IMG/VR virus record: IMGVR_UViG_2061766007_000524
DNA length: 27,336 nt
Reading direction: 5' to 3' (one strand)
Source: an uncultured virus (IMG/VR IMGVR_UViG_2061766007_000524)
Taxonomy: Duplodnaviria; Heunggongvirae; Uroviricota; Caudoviricetes
A model generated the notes under the pieces. It was not told where the DNA came from and made no database searches. It saw only the letters and a program-made list of their open reading frames with translations. A program made the position numbers and the translations under genes. Shown piece after piece: positions 1-26,011 of this stretch (position 1 is its first letter; each line of letters opens with the position of its first letter).

Positions 1-1306
1 TCGGGTCATTGGTACTTGGGATAAGTGCTGCCAGTCCACTCTTTTGAATCTGGTCTGAAACAGCCGTAGTCGCAATGTCCGTGTTGGAGACGGTATCGCT
101 TATCGTTTGGAGCTTCATGTTTTTGAACGGTGCTGCGTACAGGCCGATACCGCTTGTATTGTTGCGGTTGAGCATGTTGTACCAGAAGCGTTCAAACAGT
201 TCCCTTTGTGACGGTGAGATTGCTACGGGGTCAGCGTTCGGAATGTTCTTCGTTTCGTAGACCGGAATCTCGCCAGTCATGATACTGGTTAACGGATTCA
301 GAATAATTTCCATCTGAGCCGCTTCGTAGTTCGGAATCGACAGCATGGAAACCATCAGCCCGGTGTTCGGCGGTACAACTGCTTCCGTTCTATCTGATAT
401 CTCAAACGTGATAACTTTATTGGCGGGAAGGTTAACCCAATAGTAATAGGTGTTGCCCGTCACATACCATTTCGGATTACCGATTGTCTTGGCAGCATTG
501 AGCTTGTTGAACAAATCCGGATTGATTGAATATCCTCTTGCTGCTCCGTTGTAGACGTATCTGCCTTTGTCCTCTACAACCTCGCTAAATATCTGGACGT
601 ATGGTTCAAACAAATCTCCGAACTGCCGCCAGTCTGTACCCGGTTGCAGGAAATACATCATGTTAAACGCAACAGTGTATTTCCCCGGCCCGTTGTTGTA
701 ACCGATAATCTTGCACCAGTCTTGCGGTAACTGTTGGAGAAAAGCGTAGTTAACTTTGTTATGGCTCTTGTCTATGGAGTAACGTGGCGTATAGAACATC
801 TTTCCATACTCTACGCACTTCCCGACAATCTCATGCCCTATCCGTTTCGGATTGATTGTCTTAACCAGCTTTTCGACAAGGAACAAATCTCTCTTTTGAG
901 TTTCTACATCCGCTTTGTTTGGTGAATAAGTCGGATGTACATACCAATCGTATGTCAATATGTCCTGATATGTTTGGAGTATCAGGTCATAGGTTTTAGT
1001 TGTAGATGCGAGGGAAGAAGATACGCTGCGAAGTTCCTGCTCGTGGTTGTTCGGGTCTTTCACCATTTCCACAAGGTCGTTCTTCGTAACGTCCTTTGGG
1101 AGCGTGTCATACGCCTTTACACGCCTGTTTTGCACGAACGGTTCAAGCAGCATTGCCGCATAACCGCCAGCTCCTACAAACGCCTTATACGCTTCCTCAA
1201 CGGGAATATCCGCAAAGTCATTAGGAAGATTCATCATTCCCCTTGCAAGGGTCGAATAAGAATCGGAAGTTCTAACTTGTGCGTTATCTTTAACTGTTTC
1301 TTCCAT
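1..1306 (-). CDS. Probable portal protein (runs off the left edge of the window; >435 aa)
   Basis: Absent from the ORF track. Hand translation from ATG at 1306 (SD GGAGGGG upstream) gives MEETVKDNAQVRTSDSYSTLARG... with no stop to the window edge. The portal call rests on size and position after the terminase. Confidence 0.65.
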   Translation of the reverse strand, partial: MEETVKDNAQVRTSDSYSTLARGMMNLPNDFADIPVEEAYKAFVGAGGYAAMLLEPFVQNRRVKAYDTLPKDVTKNDLVEMVKDPNNHEQELRSVSSSLASTTKTYDLILQTYQDILTYDWYVHPTYSPNKADVETQKRDLFLVEKLVKTINPKRIGHEIVGKCVEYGKMFYTPRYSIDKSHNKVNYAFLQQLPQDWCKIIGYNNGPGKYTVAFNMMYFLQPGTDWRQFGDLFEPYVQIFSEVVEDKGRYVYNGAARGYSINPDLFNKLNAAKTIGNPKWYVTGNTYYYWVNLPANKVITFEISDRTEAVVPPNTGLMVSMLSIPNYEAAQMEIILNPLTSIMTGEIPVYETKNIPNADPVAISPSQRELFERFWYNMLNRNNTSGIGLYAAPFKNMKLQTISDTVSNTDIATTAVSDQIQKSGLAALIPSTNDP

Positions 1307-1616
1307 TCTCACCCCTCCGCTTCATCAGTTCTGTTCTGAATCTTTCCAAAAATTCTTTATCCTGCTGTTCACGCTTTTTAGCTTCTTCCGGATGTTCTTC
1401 CATCTGTTTCCGTTGCACTTCCGGAATAACACGATTCAGCCAACTCCAATCGTCCTCTTTGAACAGATGAATAAAATCGTCTGTCATTTCGACGGTTCCT
1501 TTAGGCTGTTCTTCCGCTATCACAAGGCAATGGTCGTTATTGGCAAAGAAGAACGGATAGCGTATCAATCTTTCAACTGACTTTGAAGTTGTAACGCAGC
1601 CCCACAGTTTATTCAT
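1290..1616 (-). CDS. Hypothetical protein (108 aa) between terminase and putative portal
   Basis: ATGA overlap with the terminase stop; overlaps the next start by 17 nt. Confidence 0.7.
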   Translation of the reverse strand: MNKLWGCVTTSKSVERLIRYPFFFANNDHCLVIAEEQPKGTVEMTDDFIHLFKEDDWSWLNRVIPEVQRKQMEEHPEEAKKREQQDKEFLERFRTELMKRRGENGRNS

Positions 1617-3451
1617 CTTGATAATGCTCCTCTGCCAAGCCGCTTAACGCTTCTTGTCCTAATCGGTATGTCACTCAGTCCTGTTCCTGTATAGCTTTCA
1701 GCGTATCGTTCCCATATATTACTTTTGCGGTTCTCGTAGTAGAGTTCTTCTTTCTCAAACCGCTGTGCAAGTCTTGAAGCATACAATAGCGCCGACCATT
1801 CGTCTTTCGGGATTCTTTCGGAAATTTCTTTTTCCGTCCAACCAACGGAAGAGTATTTCTTTTGAAGGTTCGCTATCTGCTGGCAAAGCTTATTTGTTTT
1901 CAAATACGGATGCTGAATCAGTGCATCGTCTCCGTCATCCGTTATGTTGTGTTTCAACTTATAAGCTTTCGTAGCATCAACGATATTTGAAGTGAGAAGC
2001 TTTAGATTGCCGTTTTCAATCTCACGTTCTATGTAATCAAGCATTTCAGCGTTTGGGTCTCTGCCGCTCATGCCAGTTGCCTGTAGCGGATAGATGCAAG
2101 CTATTGAACCTTCCTGTTCCAATGCGTTGTACGGTTCTTCATGCGTTATCGTTGCCAGTGGTGGAAGTCCATCCCCTAAATCTCTGTGCAACTGTTCCAC
2201 AACTGATTGCCCGTAGGAACGTGCGTCCAGAATGATGAATGTTCCCTTGCAACCGTCCAGCATGTAGTCACGCCATCTGGACTTGATTATTCTTGCGTGT
2301 TCTTCTGCTGACTTCGGCGGCGCTGCATCAGTTATGTAAACACATGACTTTCTGTACCTGTCCATTTTCTCAGCAGAGTATTGCCTTTCGCACTTCAAAA
2401 CAGCCATTGCCGTCAAAGCGTTTCCGGATATGTCACGGCTTGAAACGTCGTACCCAAGAATGTAGAAGCACTCTTTATCGCCACAGTGCTTATCTTCCAT
2501 TAGCATTACTTTTCTGGAAGCTCGTAAATCGCTGTCTTTGATAATCGGGTTTGTAACCGACCCTGTGCATCGGCTTTCGCACTCTCTCATGAACTGTTCT
2601 GCCGTGAGTTGGCGTTTCAAGTTCCTGTAGTAGGCGAATGATTTCATTCTGCATAGCACGACGGTTTCCCATGGTATGCAACAGGCAAAAGCGCTCAGTC
2701 CGTTTCTCATATCATCCCGTATCGCTGAGTACACGTTAAACGCCGTGTTCTCTTTTCGTGATGCTGATGTGATGTAATGGACTTGTAGATTAACCGCTCC
2801 CCTTGTCGTGTTTCCAGCGACCTTGTATTCTTTCCGGTTAGTCGGTAAAACAATCTGGTTGAAGTTTTCCCAATCGAACACGGGGTTTTCTTCTTGTCCG
2901 CATTCTTCCGCTACCAAAGAAGATGTGTCAATTCCTCTCGGTACTCGCATTGTGAATCTTGAACCGTTTTTGTTTTCCAATACGAAACTGTTCTGCGCGT
3001 CGCTTCTTACGCTCCACAGGTTCGCCAGTATCGGCGTATTGCGGAGATATGTTGCATACGCTTTTGAAGCGATAGGCGCTGCTTGTTTCTCTGCTGGCGC
3101 GTAGTAACCTACGATTTCTCCCGGAAACAGGATGCCTTTGTTGCATCTGTCAGATACAACGCACGTTGTTTTACCAGTTCCACGGCTGGCATAGAAGAAC
3201 GTCCGTTCATTCCTTGCCATTGCTCTTTTCATCATCCGGTTGATGATTGAATTTGAAAACTCAGGGTTATCCCCTTCGCAAATGTCTTCAAGAATATCGG
3301 GATAGTATCTGAATCATTTTCAGAAAAAGGCAACTAATATCGCCCATTGGCGTGTTGCGTACTTGTCATAGTTGATTTTTTCACGGGTACTCTTGATTCT
3401 GTAGTGTCCAGTCCGCTTATCAAATATGAACTTGTTTATATTGGTTGCCAT
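1613..3451 (-). CDS. terL: Terminase large subunit; frame starts at ATG 3451 and has two in-frame UGA codons (3320-3322, 3314-3316)
   Basis: Walker A YASRGTGKT, Walker B-like LVAEECG, coupling motif ITSA, nuclease motif ILGYDVS, C-terminal KDEWSAL. The 72 codons upstream of the track's start (3235) are in frame and read MATNINKF...WAILVAFF*K*FRYYPDILEDIC. Confidence 0.9.
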
Positions 3452-3499
3452 CTTCTAATTCATCACCACCCACATTACAATCAATCTTTTGTGTTCGGT

Positions 3500-4513
3500 T
3501 TATTTCATTGGAATTAGTTGCAATTCCTTGTAATTTTGTTTTTCCTGCTTGTCCTGTTTCGGAGAAAACTCATTCATTTCATCCGTCACACGGAATCTTT
3601 TTGGTAGCCTGTCAAATTCAGCCTGTCCTTCGTTCCATCGTGTCGCGTTAATAATCTGCATCAGCATTTGGTCGGCAGCGTCACGGCACATTGGATATTT
3701 CTTGTGAAATGAATGGTTTGCAAGCATCGTTAGAAGTTCTTCTTCGTCCGGTATATTCAGTCCTGCTCTTTCAACTGCGAGGACGATATCATCCAAACGA
3801 ACAACATCATCAATCTGCTGGTCTTTCTTTCTCAGGGCTTCCGCTTCCATTTCGACCTTGATAAGGTTTCCAAGCTTTTGTGCATCAGCGTATTCTTTCT
3901 GCTGAATACATCTGTCCTGTTCCAAAGTCCATTTACAGATTTTTTGTATAGCAAGCTCTGCCTGTAGGTTCCTGTTTGGTCTTTCATCAGTCAGAGCAAT
4001 ATAAGTCTTTTCCAGAGCGGCGTAGTCATCATCGGTGTAGGGTGTGTCTTTCGGACCTCTCCCCCACATTTGAATCCTCTGTTCTTCCGGAGTAAGTTCT
4101 TCTTCTTCCTCGATGTTTTCTTCATCGACTTCCAAAGTGTGATACTCTCCGGAAAACGCTTGCTTGATGTTCGTAATCCCATCAGCAAACCCGCGCTTCT
4201 GGTATCTATCTTTATCGGCTTTTTTAGCCGCTAACACGTAACCGACCCATGGACCTCTTTTGTTTCCCGCAAGTTCCCTCGCTTCGCCAAACAAAGACGG
4301 AACGTAAGGTAGGTTCGTGATGATGCAGCAGATATACATTGCCAGCTTGTAGCCAACTATCTCGCCTATCCACATGAATATCTTCGACTGGCATTTCACA
4401 CAGTACGGTACATATCCGCTGCCAAGCTTATCCGGTAACAGCCAACTGTTATTCTCAGTCAGTTCAGTCCCGCATATAGCGCAATAACATTTTTTCTTCC
4501 CGTTGTCTGCCAT
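3500..4513 (-). CDS. Zn-finger phage protein directly upstream of terL (candidate small terminase or packaging partner)
   Basis: N-terminal CAIC...CVKC motifs, helical C-terminus, SD AAAGGA; function inferred from position only. Confidence 0.55.
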   Translation of the reverse strand: MADNGKKKCYCAICGTELTENNSWLLPDKLGSGYVPYCVKCQSKIFMWIGEIVGYKLAMYICCIITNLPYVPSLFGEARELAGNKRGPWVGYVLAAKKADKDRYQKRGFADGITNIKQAFSGEYHTLEVDEENIEEEEELTPEEQRIQMWGRGPKDTPYTDDDYAALEKTYIALTDERPNRNLQAELAIQKICKWTLEQDRCIQQKEYADAQKLGNLIKVEMEAEALRKKDQQIDDVVRLDDIVLAVERAGLNIPDEEELLTMLANHSFHKKYPMCRDAADQMLMQIINATRWNEGQAEFDRLPKRFRVTDEMNEFSPKQDKQEKQNYKELQLIPMK

Positions 4514-4676: not shown

Positions 4677-5051
4677 TTACAGTGATAACTTCCAGCCAGT
4701 TACTTTTTCAAGTCTCTCTGAAATATCGTTAACACCGCTTTCGCCGATATGTGGTATCTTGATAAGGTCATACGCTCTCATGTGGCTCAGTTCGTACATC
4801 GTCCTGATTCCTGCCGCATACAGAGCTTCGTATGTTTTCGGCTTTAGTTCCAGTATGTCAATTGAAAAACCTTCCCATTCTTCCGGTTGCTTCTTGTTTT
4901 CTTCCGACAGCCACGCTTCTATTCGTTCCTTGCAGATAATGCCCTTGATGCTGACTTTATCATCCTGCCGTTCACACATTCGGCGAAACTCCATCAGAAA
5001 GTCAGCAAGTTTATCTTTGGACATTATCTGAATCATATTATATATCGTCAA
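4677..5051 (-). CDS. Protein with a C-terminal RNA polymerase alpha-CTD-like (HhH) domain
   Basis: SIDILELKPKTYEALYAAGIRTMYEL...LIKIPHIGESGVNDISERL follows the alpha-CTD pattern (IEELELSVRSYNCL..AGI.T..DL...LLK..NLG.KS..EI...L). Start uncertain; TTG at 5051 chosen. Confidence 0.75.
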   Translation of the reverse strand: MTIYNMIQIMSKDKLADFLMEFRRMCERQDDKVSIKGIICKERIEAWLSEENKKQPEEWEGFSIDILELKPKTYEALYAAGIRTMYELSHMRAYDLIKIPHIGESGVNDISERLEKVTGWKLSL

Positions 5052-6315
5052 ACCCGTCACTCCGTTCCCGTCTTGATGGAGTGTATTCAATATCTTCCGA
5101 CCTCTCTATAAACCTCTGGTATTCACCTTCAAAGTTAAGTTGAACAGTTCCAAGTTTTCCCCTTCTGTTCTTTGCCACTTTACAACCTCTCACTCCGGTT
5201 TCATTGTCCAACTTCCAAAGAAAAAGAACCTTCGATGCGTTCTGTTCCAGTTCACCGGAATCTCTCAGGTCATTCAGTTGCGGTTCCTGCGTTTCTTCCT
5301 TTCCACGGTTTAACTGTGCCAGTACAACAATTGGGATTCTCAATTCAGTCGCAAGGTTTTTCAGTTCCCTTGATATAGCTCCAAGTTCAAGATTCCTGTT
5401 CTGATATTTTCCAGCGGCTTTCAAAAGTCCTATATGGTCTACGAAGATGATTTCTGCATCCGGTATAATTCTTGCTTCTGCTCGTATCTGCTGGACTGTG
5501 ACGTTCGGTGAATCGTTTATGATGATTGGCAATCTTGACAGTTCCGCACACGCTTTTGAATATCTCGTTATCTCGTCGTTGTCCATCGTCTTGTCAATTA
5601 TATGGTCGAGTGGTATGTTTCCCCTGTTGCAGATGTATCTTTCCCCAAGCTCGTCTCTCAGCATTTCAAGTGAGAAGTAAATAGCTTTGTGACCTTTTCT
5701 TGCTGCACTTGCGGCGAAGTCTAATCCTAAAGCCGACTTGCCGACTCCCGGCCTTGCACCTATGATAATTAGATTCCCGCCGTACATTCCCTTCAAGATT
5801 CCGTCTAATCTTGGGAATCCCGTGTCAATTCTAAGCCCAAGACCTTCATTCAACTTTTCTGCTGCTTCAATCATCACGTCAAACATCGTCACGTTGTTTT
5901 TTATCTTATCGTCAAGAAAATCTTGGCACTTCTGGATGATTGACGTTGCGATAGTATCTTTCTCATAAGTGTTGAATATCTCATACACAGCATTTTGAAG
6001 TCTCCGCTCATTTGCAGCGTCGTGAATAACATGTGCATGGAGAACAACGTTATTTGACGTAGATGTTTCCAACATGCAATCAGCGACAAACTTTGTTGGA
6101 TTATCCATCATCGTCAACAGGCATTGCGGTAATAGAGCAACGTCAATCGGTTCATTGTGGATGAACTTGTCAAGCATGGTTTCGTAGAGCTTTTCACATG
6201 CGTTAATCTGAAAGTCATCAGCTTTTAGAAACGTTGCCACATCTTTCATTGCTTTAGGTTCTATGCACAAAGCTCCAATTACGTTTCTTTCCAAACTGGA
6301 ATCATAAAGCGTCAA
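5038..6315 (-). CDS. dnaB: Replicative DNA helicase, DnaB family
   Basis: GARPGVGKS, FSLEM, IFVDHIGL, LAQLNR, DLRDSGELEQNA and KNRRG motifs. Confidence 0.95.
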   Translation of the reverse strand: MTLYDSSLERNVIGALCIEPKAMKDVATFLKADDFQINACEKLYETMLDKFIHNEPIDVALLPQCLLTMMDNPTKFVADCMLETSTSNNVVLHAHVIHDAANERRLQNAVYEIFNTYEKDTIATSIIQKCQDFLDDKIKNNVTMFDVMIEAAEKLNEGLGLRIDTGFPRLDGILKGMYGGNLIIIGARPGVGKSALGLDFAASAARKGHKAIYFSLEMLRDELGERYICNRGNIPLDHIIDKTMDNDEITRYSKACAELSRLPIIINDSPNVTVQQIRAEARIIPDAEIIFVDHIGLLKAAGKYQNRNLELGAISRELKNLATELRIPIVVLAQLNRGKEETQEPQLNDLRDSGELEQNASKVLFLWKLDNETGVRGCKVAKNRRGKLGTVQLNFEGEYQRFIERSEDIEYTPSRRERSDGFDDI

Positions 6316-7442: not shown

Positions 7443-8216
7443 TTATATGTCATAGTATGGACCGCATGAATCAAAAAACGCTTTAAGTTTATAGTCATCT
7501 ATACATTTCAGTGCTTCAATATCTAAATGATATTTTTTCATGCAAAACTCTCTGAATTGTTTATAATAATCTATATGGAAAACTACTGTACAGCACTCTG
7601 CTGATGTTATATCTTCTGGAAGGTCATCTATTGAAACAAATTTTTTGCTTTTATATATTTTGTTAATCCTGTTATAACAGATACCGCCAATTTTTTTCAA
7701 TGCGTTAAGCCAAGTTTCCCAATCCCCGCAATAATATTTGTCGAAACTTATAAAAGTAGCTTTTAGAACTTCTTCTACGCCAAATTGTTTTATTGCTTTA
7801 CGAATATGATTTTTGACTAATTCATCGTTCTCTTGAATTTCTTTTCTTGGATAATTCGAGTTAATATAATCCAAAACAGTATCAGATAATTCGTTTTCGT
7901 ATTTTATAAGTTCTTGTTTCCATTCCAAAAGCATTTCAAGTTGTTCGCGTTTCTCATTTATGATTTCAAGTTCTGCCATCTGTTTCTTTACGACAGCATT
8001 ATCGTCCAGCAACTTTTTACCTTTCCCTGAGTTGCATTCGCGGCATGATGTAACAAGATTCATGATATCATTCTCGCCACCTTCTGCTACCGGAACAATA
8101 TGGTCTACTTCCAAAACAACATCAGGTGCACTTCTTCCGCAATATTGGCATTTGAAACCGTCTCTTTTGAATACTTCAAATCTTGTCGAACGTGAAAGTG
8201 CTTTTCTGTTTCCCAT
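7443..8216 (-). CDS. HNH endonuclease-domain protein
   Basis: RFEVFKRDGFKCQYCG...LEVDHIVPVAEGGENDIMNLVTSCRECNSGKG. ATG 8216 has a GGGGG SD; the 3' half is visibly AT-rich. Confidence 0.85.
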   Translation of the reverse strand: MGNRKALSRSTRFEVFKRDGFKCQYCGRSAPDVVLEVDHIVPVAEGGENDIMNLVTSCRECNSGKGKKLLDDNAVVKKQMAELEIINEKREQLEMLLEWKQELIKYENELSDTVLDYINSNYPRKEIQENDELVKNHIRKAIKQFGVEEVLKATFISFDKYYCGDWETWLNALKKIGGICYNRINKIYKSKKFVSIDDLPEDITSAECCTVVFHIDYYKQFREFCMKKYHLDIEALKCIDDYKLKAFFDSCGPYYDI

Positions 8217-8240
8217 TTCTGTTTCCCCCATTAAAAGAAT

Positions 8241-21981: not shown

Positions 21982-22236
21982 TTACATATTAGCTGTTCGC
22001 ACGTAGTTAGGCGCTCCGTCTTCGTAATGCTCAATCAGCCGCCTGTACTTCACAATGTCCATCATCTGCAACTTGTTCTCGTACCACTGTTCTTCGTACT
22101 TTTTCTTTTCTCTTTCGAGCTGGCAAGTCAGATTCTTGCACTCCGCTTTGAGACGGTTTATCTCGTCCATGTTCTTTTGGACGTATGCCAGCAAATCGCT
22201 GTAGGACATTTTCTCGATGCTCTTTGTCTTAGCCAT
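21982..22236 (-). CDS. Coiled-coil hypothetical protein
   Basis: Start placed at ATG 22236 (MAKTKSIEK), overlapping the HNH gene stop. Confidence 0.6.
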   Translation of the reverse strand: MAKTKSIEKMSYSDLLAYVQKNMDEINRLKAECKNLTCQLEREKKKYEEQWYENKLQMMDIVKYRRLIEHYEDGAPNYVRTANM

Positions 22237-22591
22237 CACTTTTTCCCTTTCCGTACATTCCTGTTCTTTTATAGATTTCAGCAGCAAATTGCACATCCCG
22301 TATTTGATTGGTAAGATTATCAACCCATTCAAGATTCGTCACTGAGTTGTTTTGCTTGTTACCGTCTATGTGGTTTACTTGCGGTAATCCTTCCGGGTTA
22401 GGTATGAACGCTTTGGCTACAAGTCTGTGAACACGATGCTTTTCACATTTCCCGTTACGCGACAGTCCGATTTTTAAATAACCTTTTTTGTTCTCATACG
22501 GCTTCAATATCCCGTTTACACTTTTCACTCTACCCCATGTGCTAACGGCATATCTTCCATCGTACCCTTCAATTTCTCTCCATATCTCCAT
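22229..22591 (-). CDS. NUMOD4/HNH homing endonuclease-type protein
   Basis: EIWREIEGYDGRYAVSTWGRVKS; VHRLVAKAFIPNP..LPQVNHIDGNKQNNSVTNLEW. Confidence 0.92.
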   Translation of the reverse strand: MEIWREIEGYDGRYAVSTWGRVKSVNGILKPYENKKGYLKIGLSRNGKCEKHRVHRLVAKAFIPNPEGLPQVNHIDGNKQNNSVTNLEWVDNLTNQIRDVQFAAEIYKRTGMYGKGKSDG

Positions 22592-25937: not shown

Positions 25938-26011
25938 TGGCACTGATTTATGGTGCTGACCCACATCTTACAGGTTCAAAGCCTGTCGTGCTACCGTTAC
26001 ACCAAACCAGT
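25938..26011 (-). tRNA. tRNA-Gln(UUG) with an atypical T loop
   Basis: Acceptor ACUGGUU/AAUCAGU + G-CCA; D arm GUG-UAACGGUAG-CAC; anticodon arm ACAGG-CUUUGAA-CCUGU; T arm UGUGG-GUCAGCA-CCAUA. Confidence 0.7.

Follow-up and report, generated by a model that had tools for sequence, protein, structure and literature searches.

Stop-led micro-gaps at one site of a phage terminase gene family: a candidate for short translational bypassing

We describe a coding gap in the gene for the large terminase subunit (TerL, gene terL) of an uncultured Caudoviricetes virus, a temperate rumen phage represented by a stretch of 27,336 nucleotides (nt) of DNA (IMG/VR record IMGVR_UViG_2061766007_000524) that is called the window here. 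The gene is broken by a 9-nt block, UGA AAA UGA, lying between two identical Phe codons, and related genes are broken at the same site by other short blocks that also open with a stop codon. The reading that we favour, and consider probable, is that ribosomes would cross this gap by a natural short translational bypass, a stop-hop carried out by peptidyl-tRNA-Phe.

Anatomy of the interrupted gene

On the minus strand of the window, the gene is composed of two open reading frames (ORFs) and the elements between and before them:

3464..3470, minus strand: Shine-Dalgarno-like GGTGGTG upstream of ATG 3451, read directly from the sequence
3323..3451, minus strand: ORF1 of terL; begins at ATG 3451 and has the take-off Phe as its 43rd and last codon (MATNINK...RQWAILVAFF)
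3323..3325, minus strand: proposed take-off codon UUC (Phe43); the E-site codon before it is UUU (Phe42)
3314..3322, minus strand: coding gap UGA AAA UGA, 9 nt, placing a stop in the A site; missing from every homologue
3311..3313, minus strand: proposed landing codon UUC; decoding would resume at AGA (Arg), followed by TAC TAT
1613..3313, minus strand: ORF2 of terL, from the landing codon to the TGA stop (1615-1613)

The gap codons occupy 3322-3320 (TGA), 3319-3317 (AAA) and 3316-3314 (TGA). The sequence agrees with the first-pass annotation of this DNA in that one frame leads from ATG 3451 through UGA AAA UGA into a 540-residue ORF (1613..3235), a frame shared by the landing UUC and everything before the gap, and in that identical UUC codons (3325-3323 and 3313-3311) flank the gap. 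Read through, the frame comprises 612 codons; a hop would take away four of them and therefore give the 608-residue protein, with the junction LVAFFRYYPD, that the annotation had proposed. ORF1 aligns with the N-termini of 26 full-length homologues (alignment A1, see below), and ORF2 contains the YPD motif, the Walker A motif GTGKTT and the ATPase and nuclease domains, with 564 open codons from YYPD to the stop.

Past the take-off codon, the landing UUC is the first UU. triplet in any register, and its offset of 12 nt is the expected one. When we scanned the whole window for hop-like patterns, only the terL site joined frames of 43 and 565 codons; the four other matches, whose upstream frames are short (35-41 codons), are apparently fortuitous.

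The interruption in independent sequence data

Positions 2800-3800 of the window are present in 20 runs from 10 studies, covering ruminant and other gut samples from 2011 to 2025. Assembled contigs from three further studies (X3, X4 and X6) each cover 3000-3600 unbroken, with 0 indels and 2-4 substitutions, which confirms the bases of the insert. Variation between the copies falls on positions 3098, 3107, 3164 and 3443; all four are synonymous third positions in the terL frame, one of them within ORF1. None of the 20 runs that contain 2800-3800 is recorded as RNA; X19, marked 'RNA?' and probably DNA, covers 3362-3550 only and stops short of the gap. A search of viral contigs for the exact 26-nt pattern of the gap region gave 0 matches.

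These data bear on the idea that the gap is removed before translation, either from the RNA, by cutting and ligation or by editing, or from the DNA in a sub-population. Such removal would restore the junction just as a hop would, and the window gap does lie within a small hairpin. The contigs of the three spanning runs contain no gap-less form, though contigs drop rare variants, and no structure is conserved across the alleles described below. At 3-12 nt, the gaps are also far smaller than any self-splicing element known to us. We regard removal before translation as highly improbable.

Uninterrupted homologues

A protein search with terL residues 1-160 as query returned 41 proteins, of which 36 were aligned with the window read-through in A1 (omitted were P0025, P0032, P0037, P0040 and P0042). 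All 26 full-length homologues in this alignment (587-630 residues) read ..(L/I)(A/S)F----FR.YPD.., without any extra residue where the window reads F-*-K-*. The first-pass annotation had named four sense residues at this place as an outcome that would speak against a hop; they occur in 0 of the 26. The truncated rows of A1 begin at an internal Met; besides P0028 and P0030, which represent the window ORF, these are P0034, P0035, P0036, P0038, P0039 and P0041. P0030 (536 residues), the database copy of the truncated window terL, ends in ..LSRG, its terminal TGA apparently having been read as Gly by some gene caller. This looks like an annotation oddity, TGA being the true stop of terL here.

More distant members of the family are uninterrupted in all 11 loci that show the site (about 35% identity). 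Among cultured relatives, we found no gapped terL in Bacillus phage vB_BanS-Thrax3, Lactococcus phage phiL47 or Brevibacillus phage Sundance, in each of which the annotation gives terL as one ORF that begins about 25 codons ahead of the match.

Alleles at the interrupted site

We compared the DNA of 60 related loci at the site. It is visible in 46 loci of the close family, the window among them, and these reduce to 29 distinct 110-nt sequences. Eight of these are interrupted, seven by a gap and one (L026) by a substitution. Take-off codon, gap and landing codon are separated by slashes:

Window: TTC / TGAAAATGA / TTC AGA; 12-nt hop, in frame
L002 = L003 (two metagenomes): TTC / TAACGGGCTGAG / TTC AGA; 15-nt hop, in frame
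L029: TTC / TGACCGCAG / TTC AGA; 12-nt hop, in frame
L033: TTC / TGAC / TTC AGG; 7-nt hop, frame-changing
L045: TTT / TAG / TTC CGC; 6-nt hop, in frame
L046: TTC / TGACGGAAA / TTC CGC; 12-nt hop, in frame
L024: CGC TGG / TAGCCGC / TGA TAC; 10-nt hop, frame-changing
L026: TAA replacing a Tyr codon; substitution, no gap

In all seven gap alleles a stop codon stands directly 3' of the take-off codon (TGA in four, TAA in one, TAG in two). Take-off and landing codons both encode Phe in six of the seven, the other being the near match UGG/UGA of L024, and between the matched codons lie 3-12 nt. In six of the seven, with L045 as the exception, no other triplet with the first two bases of the take-off codon precedes the required landing codon past take-off, whatever the register.

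All eight interruptions fall inside the same four codons, there is no second break in the roughly 600 codons of any copy, and complete interrupted copies keep 557-566 open codons downstream. If breaks were uniform over about 600 codons, the probability that seven further ones fall within a few codons of the first would by our arithmetic be below 1e-10. Recurrence at one site thus exceeds chance, in line with the earlier argument that random decay is hard to reconcile with stops in an otherwise intact gene. The support that the first-pass annotation had specified beforehand for a hop, namely homologues with an intact FFR(Y/W)YPD together with variable inserts that keep the matched codons and a stop, is what we found.

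The substituted allele (L026:1201-1340, JAEIGA010025036.1) reads TGG TAA CCG, giving FFRW*PD with no insert, and its downstream frame is open for 560 codons. It may be a dead copy, a case of readthrough or an assembly error.

The allelic series speaks to readthrough or reassignment of the stops, by which both UGA codons would be decoded as sense and TerL would carry four additional residues (F-x-K-x-F). UGA is the leakiest stop codon, and the gaps of the window, L002, L029, L045 and L046 are in frame. The gaps of L033 (7 nt) and L024 (10 nt) are out of frame, and this excludes readthrough as a mechanism common to the alleles. Gaps start with any of the three stop codons, and two separate readthrough events would be needed. 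Extra residues occur at the site in none of the 26 homologues. In the structure model of one homologue (P0003), the site lies towards the end of a helix predicted for residues 35-46 (predicted local distance difference test (pLDDT) about 84), just ahead of the invariant P48-D49; additional residues would probably be harmful, which fits the lack of sense inserts. Under code 11 the genes of the window are long and tightly packed, terL ends in TGA where its homologues end, and the sole tRNA of the window is Gln(UUG). We accordingly rejected a reassignment of TGA (codes 4 or 25), given the dense code-11 genes, the TGA-ended terL, the lack of a suppressor tRNA and the use of three stops, and we hold readthrough in general to be very unlikely.

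Further alleles are known from protein sequences. Searching a protein database with an alignment of N-terminal peptides yielded 10 short proteins. Six of them (P0046, P0047, P0048, P0050, P0052 and P0053), found on 1-15 contigs of which the longest has 76 kb, terminate exactly at ..SFF. Two terminate at ..FFRW, P0044 being of the L024 type (4 contigs) and P0045 corresponding to L026. P0051 is a fragment of an ungapped gene. P0049 (44 residues, 8 members, 19 contigs) terminates in ..SFFRWYP, two to four codons past the other breaks, an ending that suggests a further take-off position, possibly at the Pro codon. A search for related loci with the alignment of these mini-ORFs (A3) gave 13 loci, every one on contigs found before. 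On the other side of the gap, P0039, which represents a cluster of 30 sequences and starts at an internal Met, is 99.4% identical to the gapped L002 allele.

Truncated proteins of this kind are what one would expect of a split gene, in which translation stops at UGA and the enzyme is made by re-initiation, for example at Met 3235, with the 43-residue peptide acting in trans or being dispensable. Gene callers list P0028, P0030, P0034, P0035, P0038 and P0039, and in L029 and L033 an in-frame ATG stands 8 codons past the landing codon. The window, on the other hand, has no ATG, GTG or TTG for 27 codons past the gap, and reading the sequence before Met 3235 revealed no purine-rich, Shine-Dalgarno-like stretch, as had been noted at first pass. 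The part that such a start would skip, FRYYPDILEDICEGDN, ranks with the most strongly conserved parts of the family (in alignment A4, P48 and D49 are invariant) and remains conserved in gapped alleles, with a proportion of nonsynonymous differences (pN) of 0.015. Matched codons and an exact restoration of the junction would be unneeded in a split gene, yet both are present. We give this explanation very little credence.

Phylogenetic distribution and selection

A tree was computed from the part of the gene downstream of the site (86 rows, 74 of them different). Its nine interrupted rows require eight changes, at least six of which are forced by branches with SH-aLRT support of at least 95, and the interruption label is not more clustered than in shuffled data (129 of 500 shuffles were equally low). 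Several gapped rows have ungapped neighbours in the tree (L021-L033, L017-L045 and P0003-window).

The gaps of L029 and L033 differ by a 5-nt indel, TGAC[CGCAG]TTC, which changes the frame. Between these two genes, the proportion of synonymous differences (pS) is 0.29 and pN 0.02 upstream of the gap, 0.67 and 0.015 over the first 27 codons past the landing codon, and 0.53 and 0.055 in the remaining gene. Purifying selection is thus strong before as well as after the gap. If the two gaps are of common descent, selection has persisted through a change of frame, which only a frame-independent skipping would permit.

An alternative is that these are inactivating mutations at a hot spot, leaving dead terL genes in defective prophages or non-viable variants, with the matched TTC as a by-product of insertion (a 3-bp target duplication or an excision footprint). 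The scatter over the tree is also compatible with recurrent recent mutation. A 3-nt direct repeat borders the inserts, as expected of a footprint, L026 has a plain nonsense substitution at the same place, and the phage is temperate (integrase and repressor-like genes), so that a common host could carry a dead copy along. Against this stand the seven different inserts, all led by a stop and within two codons of each other, in a gene that shows no break elsewhere and whose 26 full-length homologues contain no sense insert. The inserts are unlike local duplications. Further, purifying selection acts on both sides of the L029/L033 gap, the four differences among independent copies of the window allele are all synonymous, and the gapped L002-type allele belongs to a 30-member cluster. 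We therefore judge inactivation unlikely.

Proposed mechanism

Under the bypass that we favour, a ribosome would arrive with UGA in its A site while its P site holds peptidyl-tRNA-Phe paired to UUC 3325-3323. Slow termination would let the P-site tRNA unpair in a fraction of the ribosomes; the mRNA would slide by 12 nt, and tRNA-Phe would re-pair on UUC 3313-3311. Decoding would restart at AGA and give the 608-residue TerL with the junction of the family, ...LVAFFRYYPD..., while ribosomes that terminate would release only the 43-residue peptide. Slippage by -1 on the run of U was considered from the sequence and rejected, as the heptamer is non-canonical and the -1 frame soon meets a stop.

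The codons for F-F-R-W/Y-Y-P form the hot spot, and hops of 6-15 nt, in frame or out of it, suggest a context that is permissive for hopping. Going further, we put forward as a tentative view, about which we are more doubtful than confident, that these codons are intrinsically hop-prone, perhaps primed by ..WALLISFF with about 43 residues in the tunnel, and that stop-led gaps of 3-12 nt arise there, change in length (also by frame-changing indels of 5 nt) and disappear again without harm. A role of the nascent peptide ..ATxxWALLISFF in assisting the hop is speculation. The peptide is conserved (alignment A2), equally so in ungapped genes, and a hop signal in it is therefore inseparable from protein function.

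As to the effect on the phage, the first-pass annotation had inferred that hopping restricts or times the production of terminase. A throttle on TerL output is one possible role of the gap; alternatively, it may be selfish or simply tolerated, destroying for instance a site cut by a nuclease, as in T4 gene 60. On the tentative view above, micro-gaps might be selected for the dosage control of late proteins or because they shield conserved DNA targets from site-specific nucleases.

Stimulatory elements

The hairpin in which the first-pass annotation had placed the gap exists in the minimum-free-energy fold:

3308..3324, minus strand: 6-bp hairpin UCUGAA-AAUGA-UUCAGA around the gap, with a loop of 5 nt

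It is weak, however, at -4.8 kcal/mol and z = -1.46, folds of equal or greater stability being reached by 21 of 200 shuffles, and it is not common to the other six gap alleles, which have z-scores of -0.76 to +0.85 and no common structure; in none of the seven is the hairpin significant. The order TTC-TGA...TTC-AGA largely forces the window hairpin.

Three local features were seen beside it. The Arg codon after the landing codon (window 3310-3308) is AGA or AGG in four of the six alleles with a Phe hop and mostly CGN in ungapped relatives, a comparison in which ancestry is uncontrolled. Together with UGA, an AGA/AGG Arg codon yields the pairing UCUGA/UCAGA. In L029, L033 and L046 the gap opens with TGAC, complementary to GTCA in the Leu-Ser codons TTG TCA 6 nt upstream, which would place the Phe codons in a loop; UGA-C is the weakest termination context in E. 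coli.

Several points weigh against a bypass. Being weak and not conserved across the seven gapped alleles, the hairpin was rejected as a shared hop signal, and the Shine-Dalgarno-like motifs GGAG, GAGG, AGGA, GGGG and AAGG are found between -15 and the landing codon in none of the seven. Unstimulated stop-hops are inefficient in E. coli. L024 would require re-pairing of tRNA-Trp on UGA, which is near-cognate, and L045 has a competing triplet, UUU, for a +1 slip. The TAA of L026 is irreparable by a hop, and some broken copies may therefore simply be dead. The phage is temperate, judging by its integrase, and a defective prophage carried by a common host could account for its being found in many samples. 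The selection test presumes common descent of the gaps in L029 and L033, which may have arisen independently. Finally, the alleles of the mini-ORFs P0046-P0053 are known from protein sequences, and the putative bypass as such is drawn from the comparison of DNA and protein sequences.

Terminase identity and genomic setting

The read-through protein matches no Pfam family at E<=0.01, and hence no curated terminase profile there; its only PHROG matches are to two groups without assigned function, 15503 and 24618, the former covering residues 6-168, that is, across the break. Its tblastn matches, at 22-26% identity, are to proteins of Bacillus, Lactococcus and Brevibacillus phages that are annotated as large terminases or are YonF-like (SPbeta YonF). 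For P0003, which is 89% identical to the window TerL, a structure model has a mean pLDDT of 71.6. Foldseek searches with this model had T4 gp17 as the best match (E 2.9e-15), followed by Sf6 gp2, HK97 TerL and D6E TerL, with 46 matches at E<=0.001. The model thus predicts the two-domain TerL fold of an ASCE ATPase and an RNase H-like nuclease. Near the N-terminus, the Walker A motif SRGTGKTT is conserved, with G91, K94 and T95 invariant in A1.

The neighbours of terL are:

2..1312, minus strand: portal gene (phrog_2739, E 9e-29), downstream of terL, running off the window
1290-1616: conserved ORF of 108 residues between terL and portal
3500..4513, minus strand: conserved upstream neighbour of 337 residues with a Cys-rich N-terminus (phrog_3314, no Pfam family)

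According to tblastn, terL has the 337- and 108-residue neighbours on its two sides whether or not the locus is gapped. The former occupies the position expected of a small terminase subunit, which as an assignment is a guess from position only. A homing endonuclease beside terL was considered and rejected, the two neighbours showing no recognisable nuclease domain. Free-standing HNH genes occur in the replication and early regions, at 7443-8231 (minus strand; HNH/HNH_5) and 22229-22591 (minus strand; NUMOD4+HNH_3); both are candidate homing nucleases, and we found no link between them and the terL gap.

Other genes of the window encode an integrase, a repressor-like protein, RecT, RecE, SSB, a DnaD-like loader, DnaB, a methyltransferase, a helicase and a dUTPase, besides the two HNH endonucleases. 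The integrase, the repressor-like protein and the accompanying gene set mark the window as part of a temperate phage. Between DnaB and the 337-residue gene lies an ORF of 137 residues (4677-5090, minus strand) resembling the C-terminal domain of RNA polymerase alpha (PF03118, E 3.6e-9). The tRNA-Gln(UUG) gene is at 25938-26011 (minus strand), and the window holds no suppressor tRNA. One relative (L001) sits in a Clostridiaceae metagenome-assembled genome.

Comparison with known systems

Translational bypassing is among the rarest recoding events, the textbook natural cases being T4 gene 60 and the byp elements of yeast mitochondria. The byp elements are 27-55 nt long, occur in many mitochondrial genes, are apparently mobile and often gained or lost, and are skipped between matched codons. 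The mitochondria of Magnusiomyces capitatus are the case named in PMC5009743. As there, many short non-coding inserts would here be skipped between matched codons and be gained or lost often; the difference is that our gaps have 3-12 nt and are confined to one site in one gene family.

The closest setting is that of Streptomyces phages, whose terminases the first-pass annotation had invoked as a precedent. The precedent is real, though the gaps in those genes open with a rare UUA codon and not with a stop (PMC10732093). A bypass of the terL gap of phage phiHau3 was proposed by Smith et al. 2013 and revisited by Antonov et al. 2023 (PMC10732093); that article lists phiHau3, prophage StrepC.1 and an S. 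catenulae prophage as candidates, with blocks of 10, 10, 7 and 7 nt, and reports a junction peptide detected by mass spectrometry in E. coli for the short terL gaps of phiHau3. Both there and here, very short non-coding blocks interrupt the essential terL gene of temperate phages, the flanks are adjacent in uninterrupted homologues, and a slow A-site codon opens each gap. The differences are that the first codon of the gap there, UUA, is tied to the bldA tRNA of the host, whereas here it is TGA, TAA or TAG; that 3 of 100 ter genes are gapped there, as against 7 gap alleles among 29 distinct sequences at one hot spot here; that the gaps there are frameshifting and here mostly in frame; and that stem-loops and a Shine-Dalgarno-like element have been proposed there, whereas our alleles share none. 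The terL family described here also looks distinct, having no Pfam terminase match.

In T4 gene 60 the gap is at codon 46, and in the window terL at codon 43. For gene 60, the literature describes a bypass of 50 nt with a take-off stem-loop, a Shine-Dalgarno-like element and a MobA cassette (PMC5009743; 10.1101/2022.08.31.505936, Manning and Atkins). The two cases have in common the matched codons, the adjacent stop and a junction that restores a conserved protein. They differ in the length of the gap (9 nt in the window, 47-50 nt in T4), show no sequence homology, and the terL gap has neither a strong take-off stem-loop, nor a Shine-Dalgarno-like motif within it, nor a homing-endonuclease gene adjoining terL.

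In E. coli, synthetic constructs support hops over a stop from one codon to its match (Weiss et al. 1987, cited from PMC5009743), and L045, with UUU UAG UUC, has exactly the form of these constructs. Those constructs are engineered and inefficient, whereas the candidate hops of terL are natural, recurrent and up to 15 nt long. On natural hopping over in-frame stops, a review of 2016 has the words 'no occurrences are known' (PMC5009743). We found no stop-led micro-gaps in terminases of gut or rumen phages in the full-text literature, a coverage that leaves subscription journals outside.

Gene callers split or truncate terL in this family, as in the six truncated proteins listed above under the split gene and the mini-ORFs P0044-P0053, and tools for annotation and completeness would therefore mislabel viable phages as having a broken terminase. 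The family provides a natural allelic series at one site, with candidate hops of 6, 7, 10, 12 and 15 nt, all three stops, gaps in frame and out of it, and no strong RNA structure, so that the minimal requirements for ribosome hopping become directly testable. If the tentative view of an intrinsically hop-prone site is true, the family would be the first natural series of in-frame and out-of-frame stop-hops.

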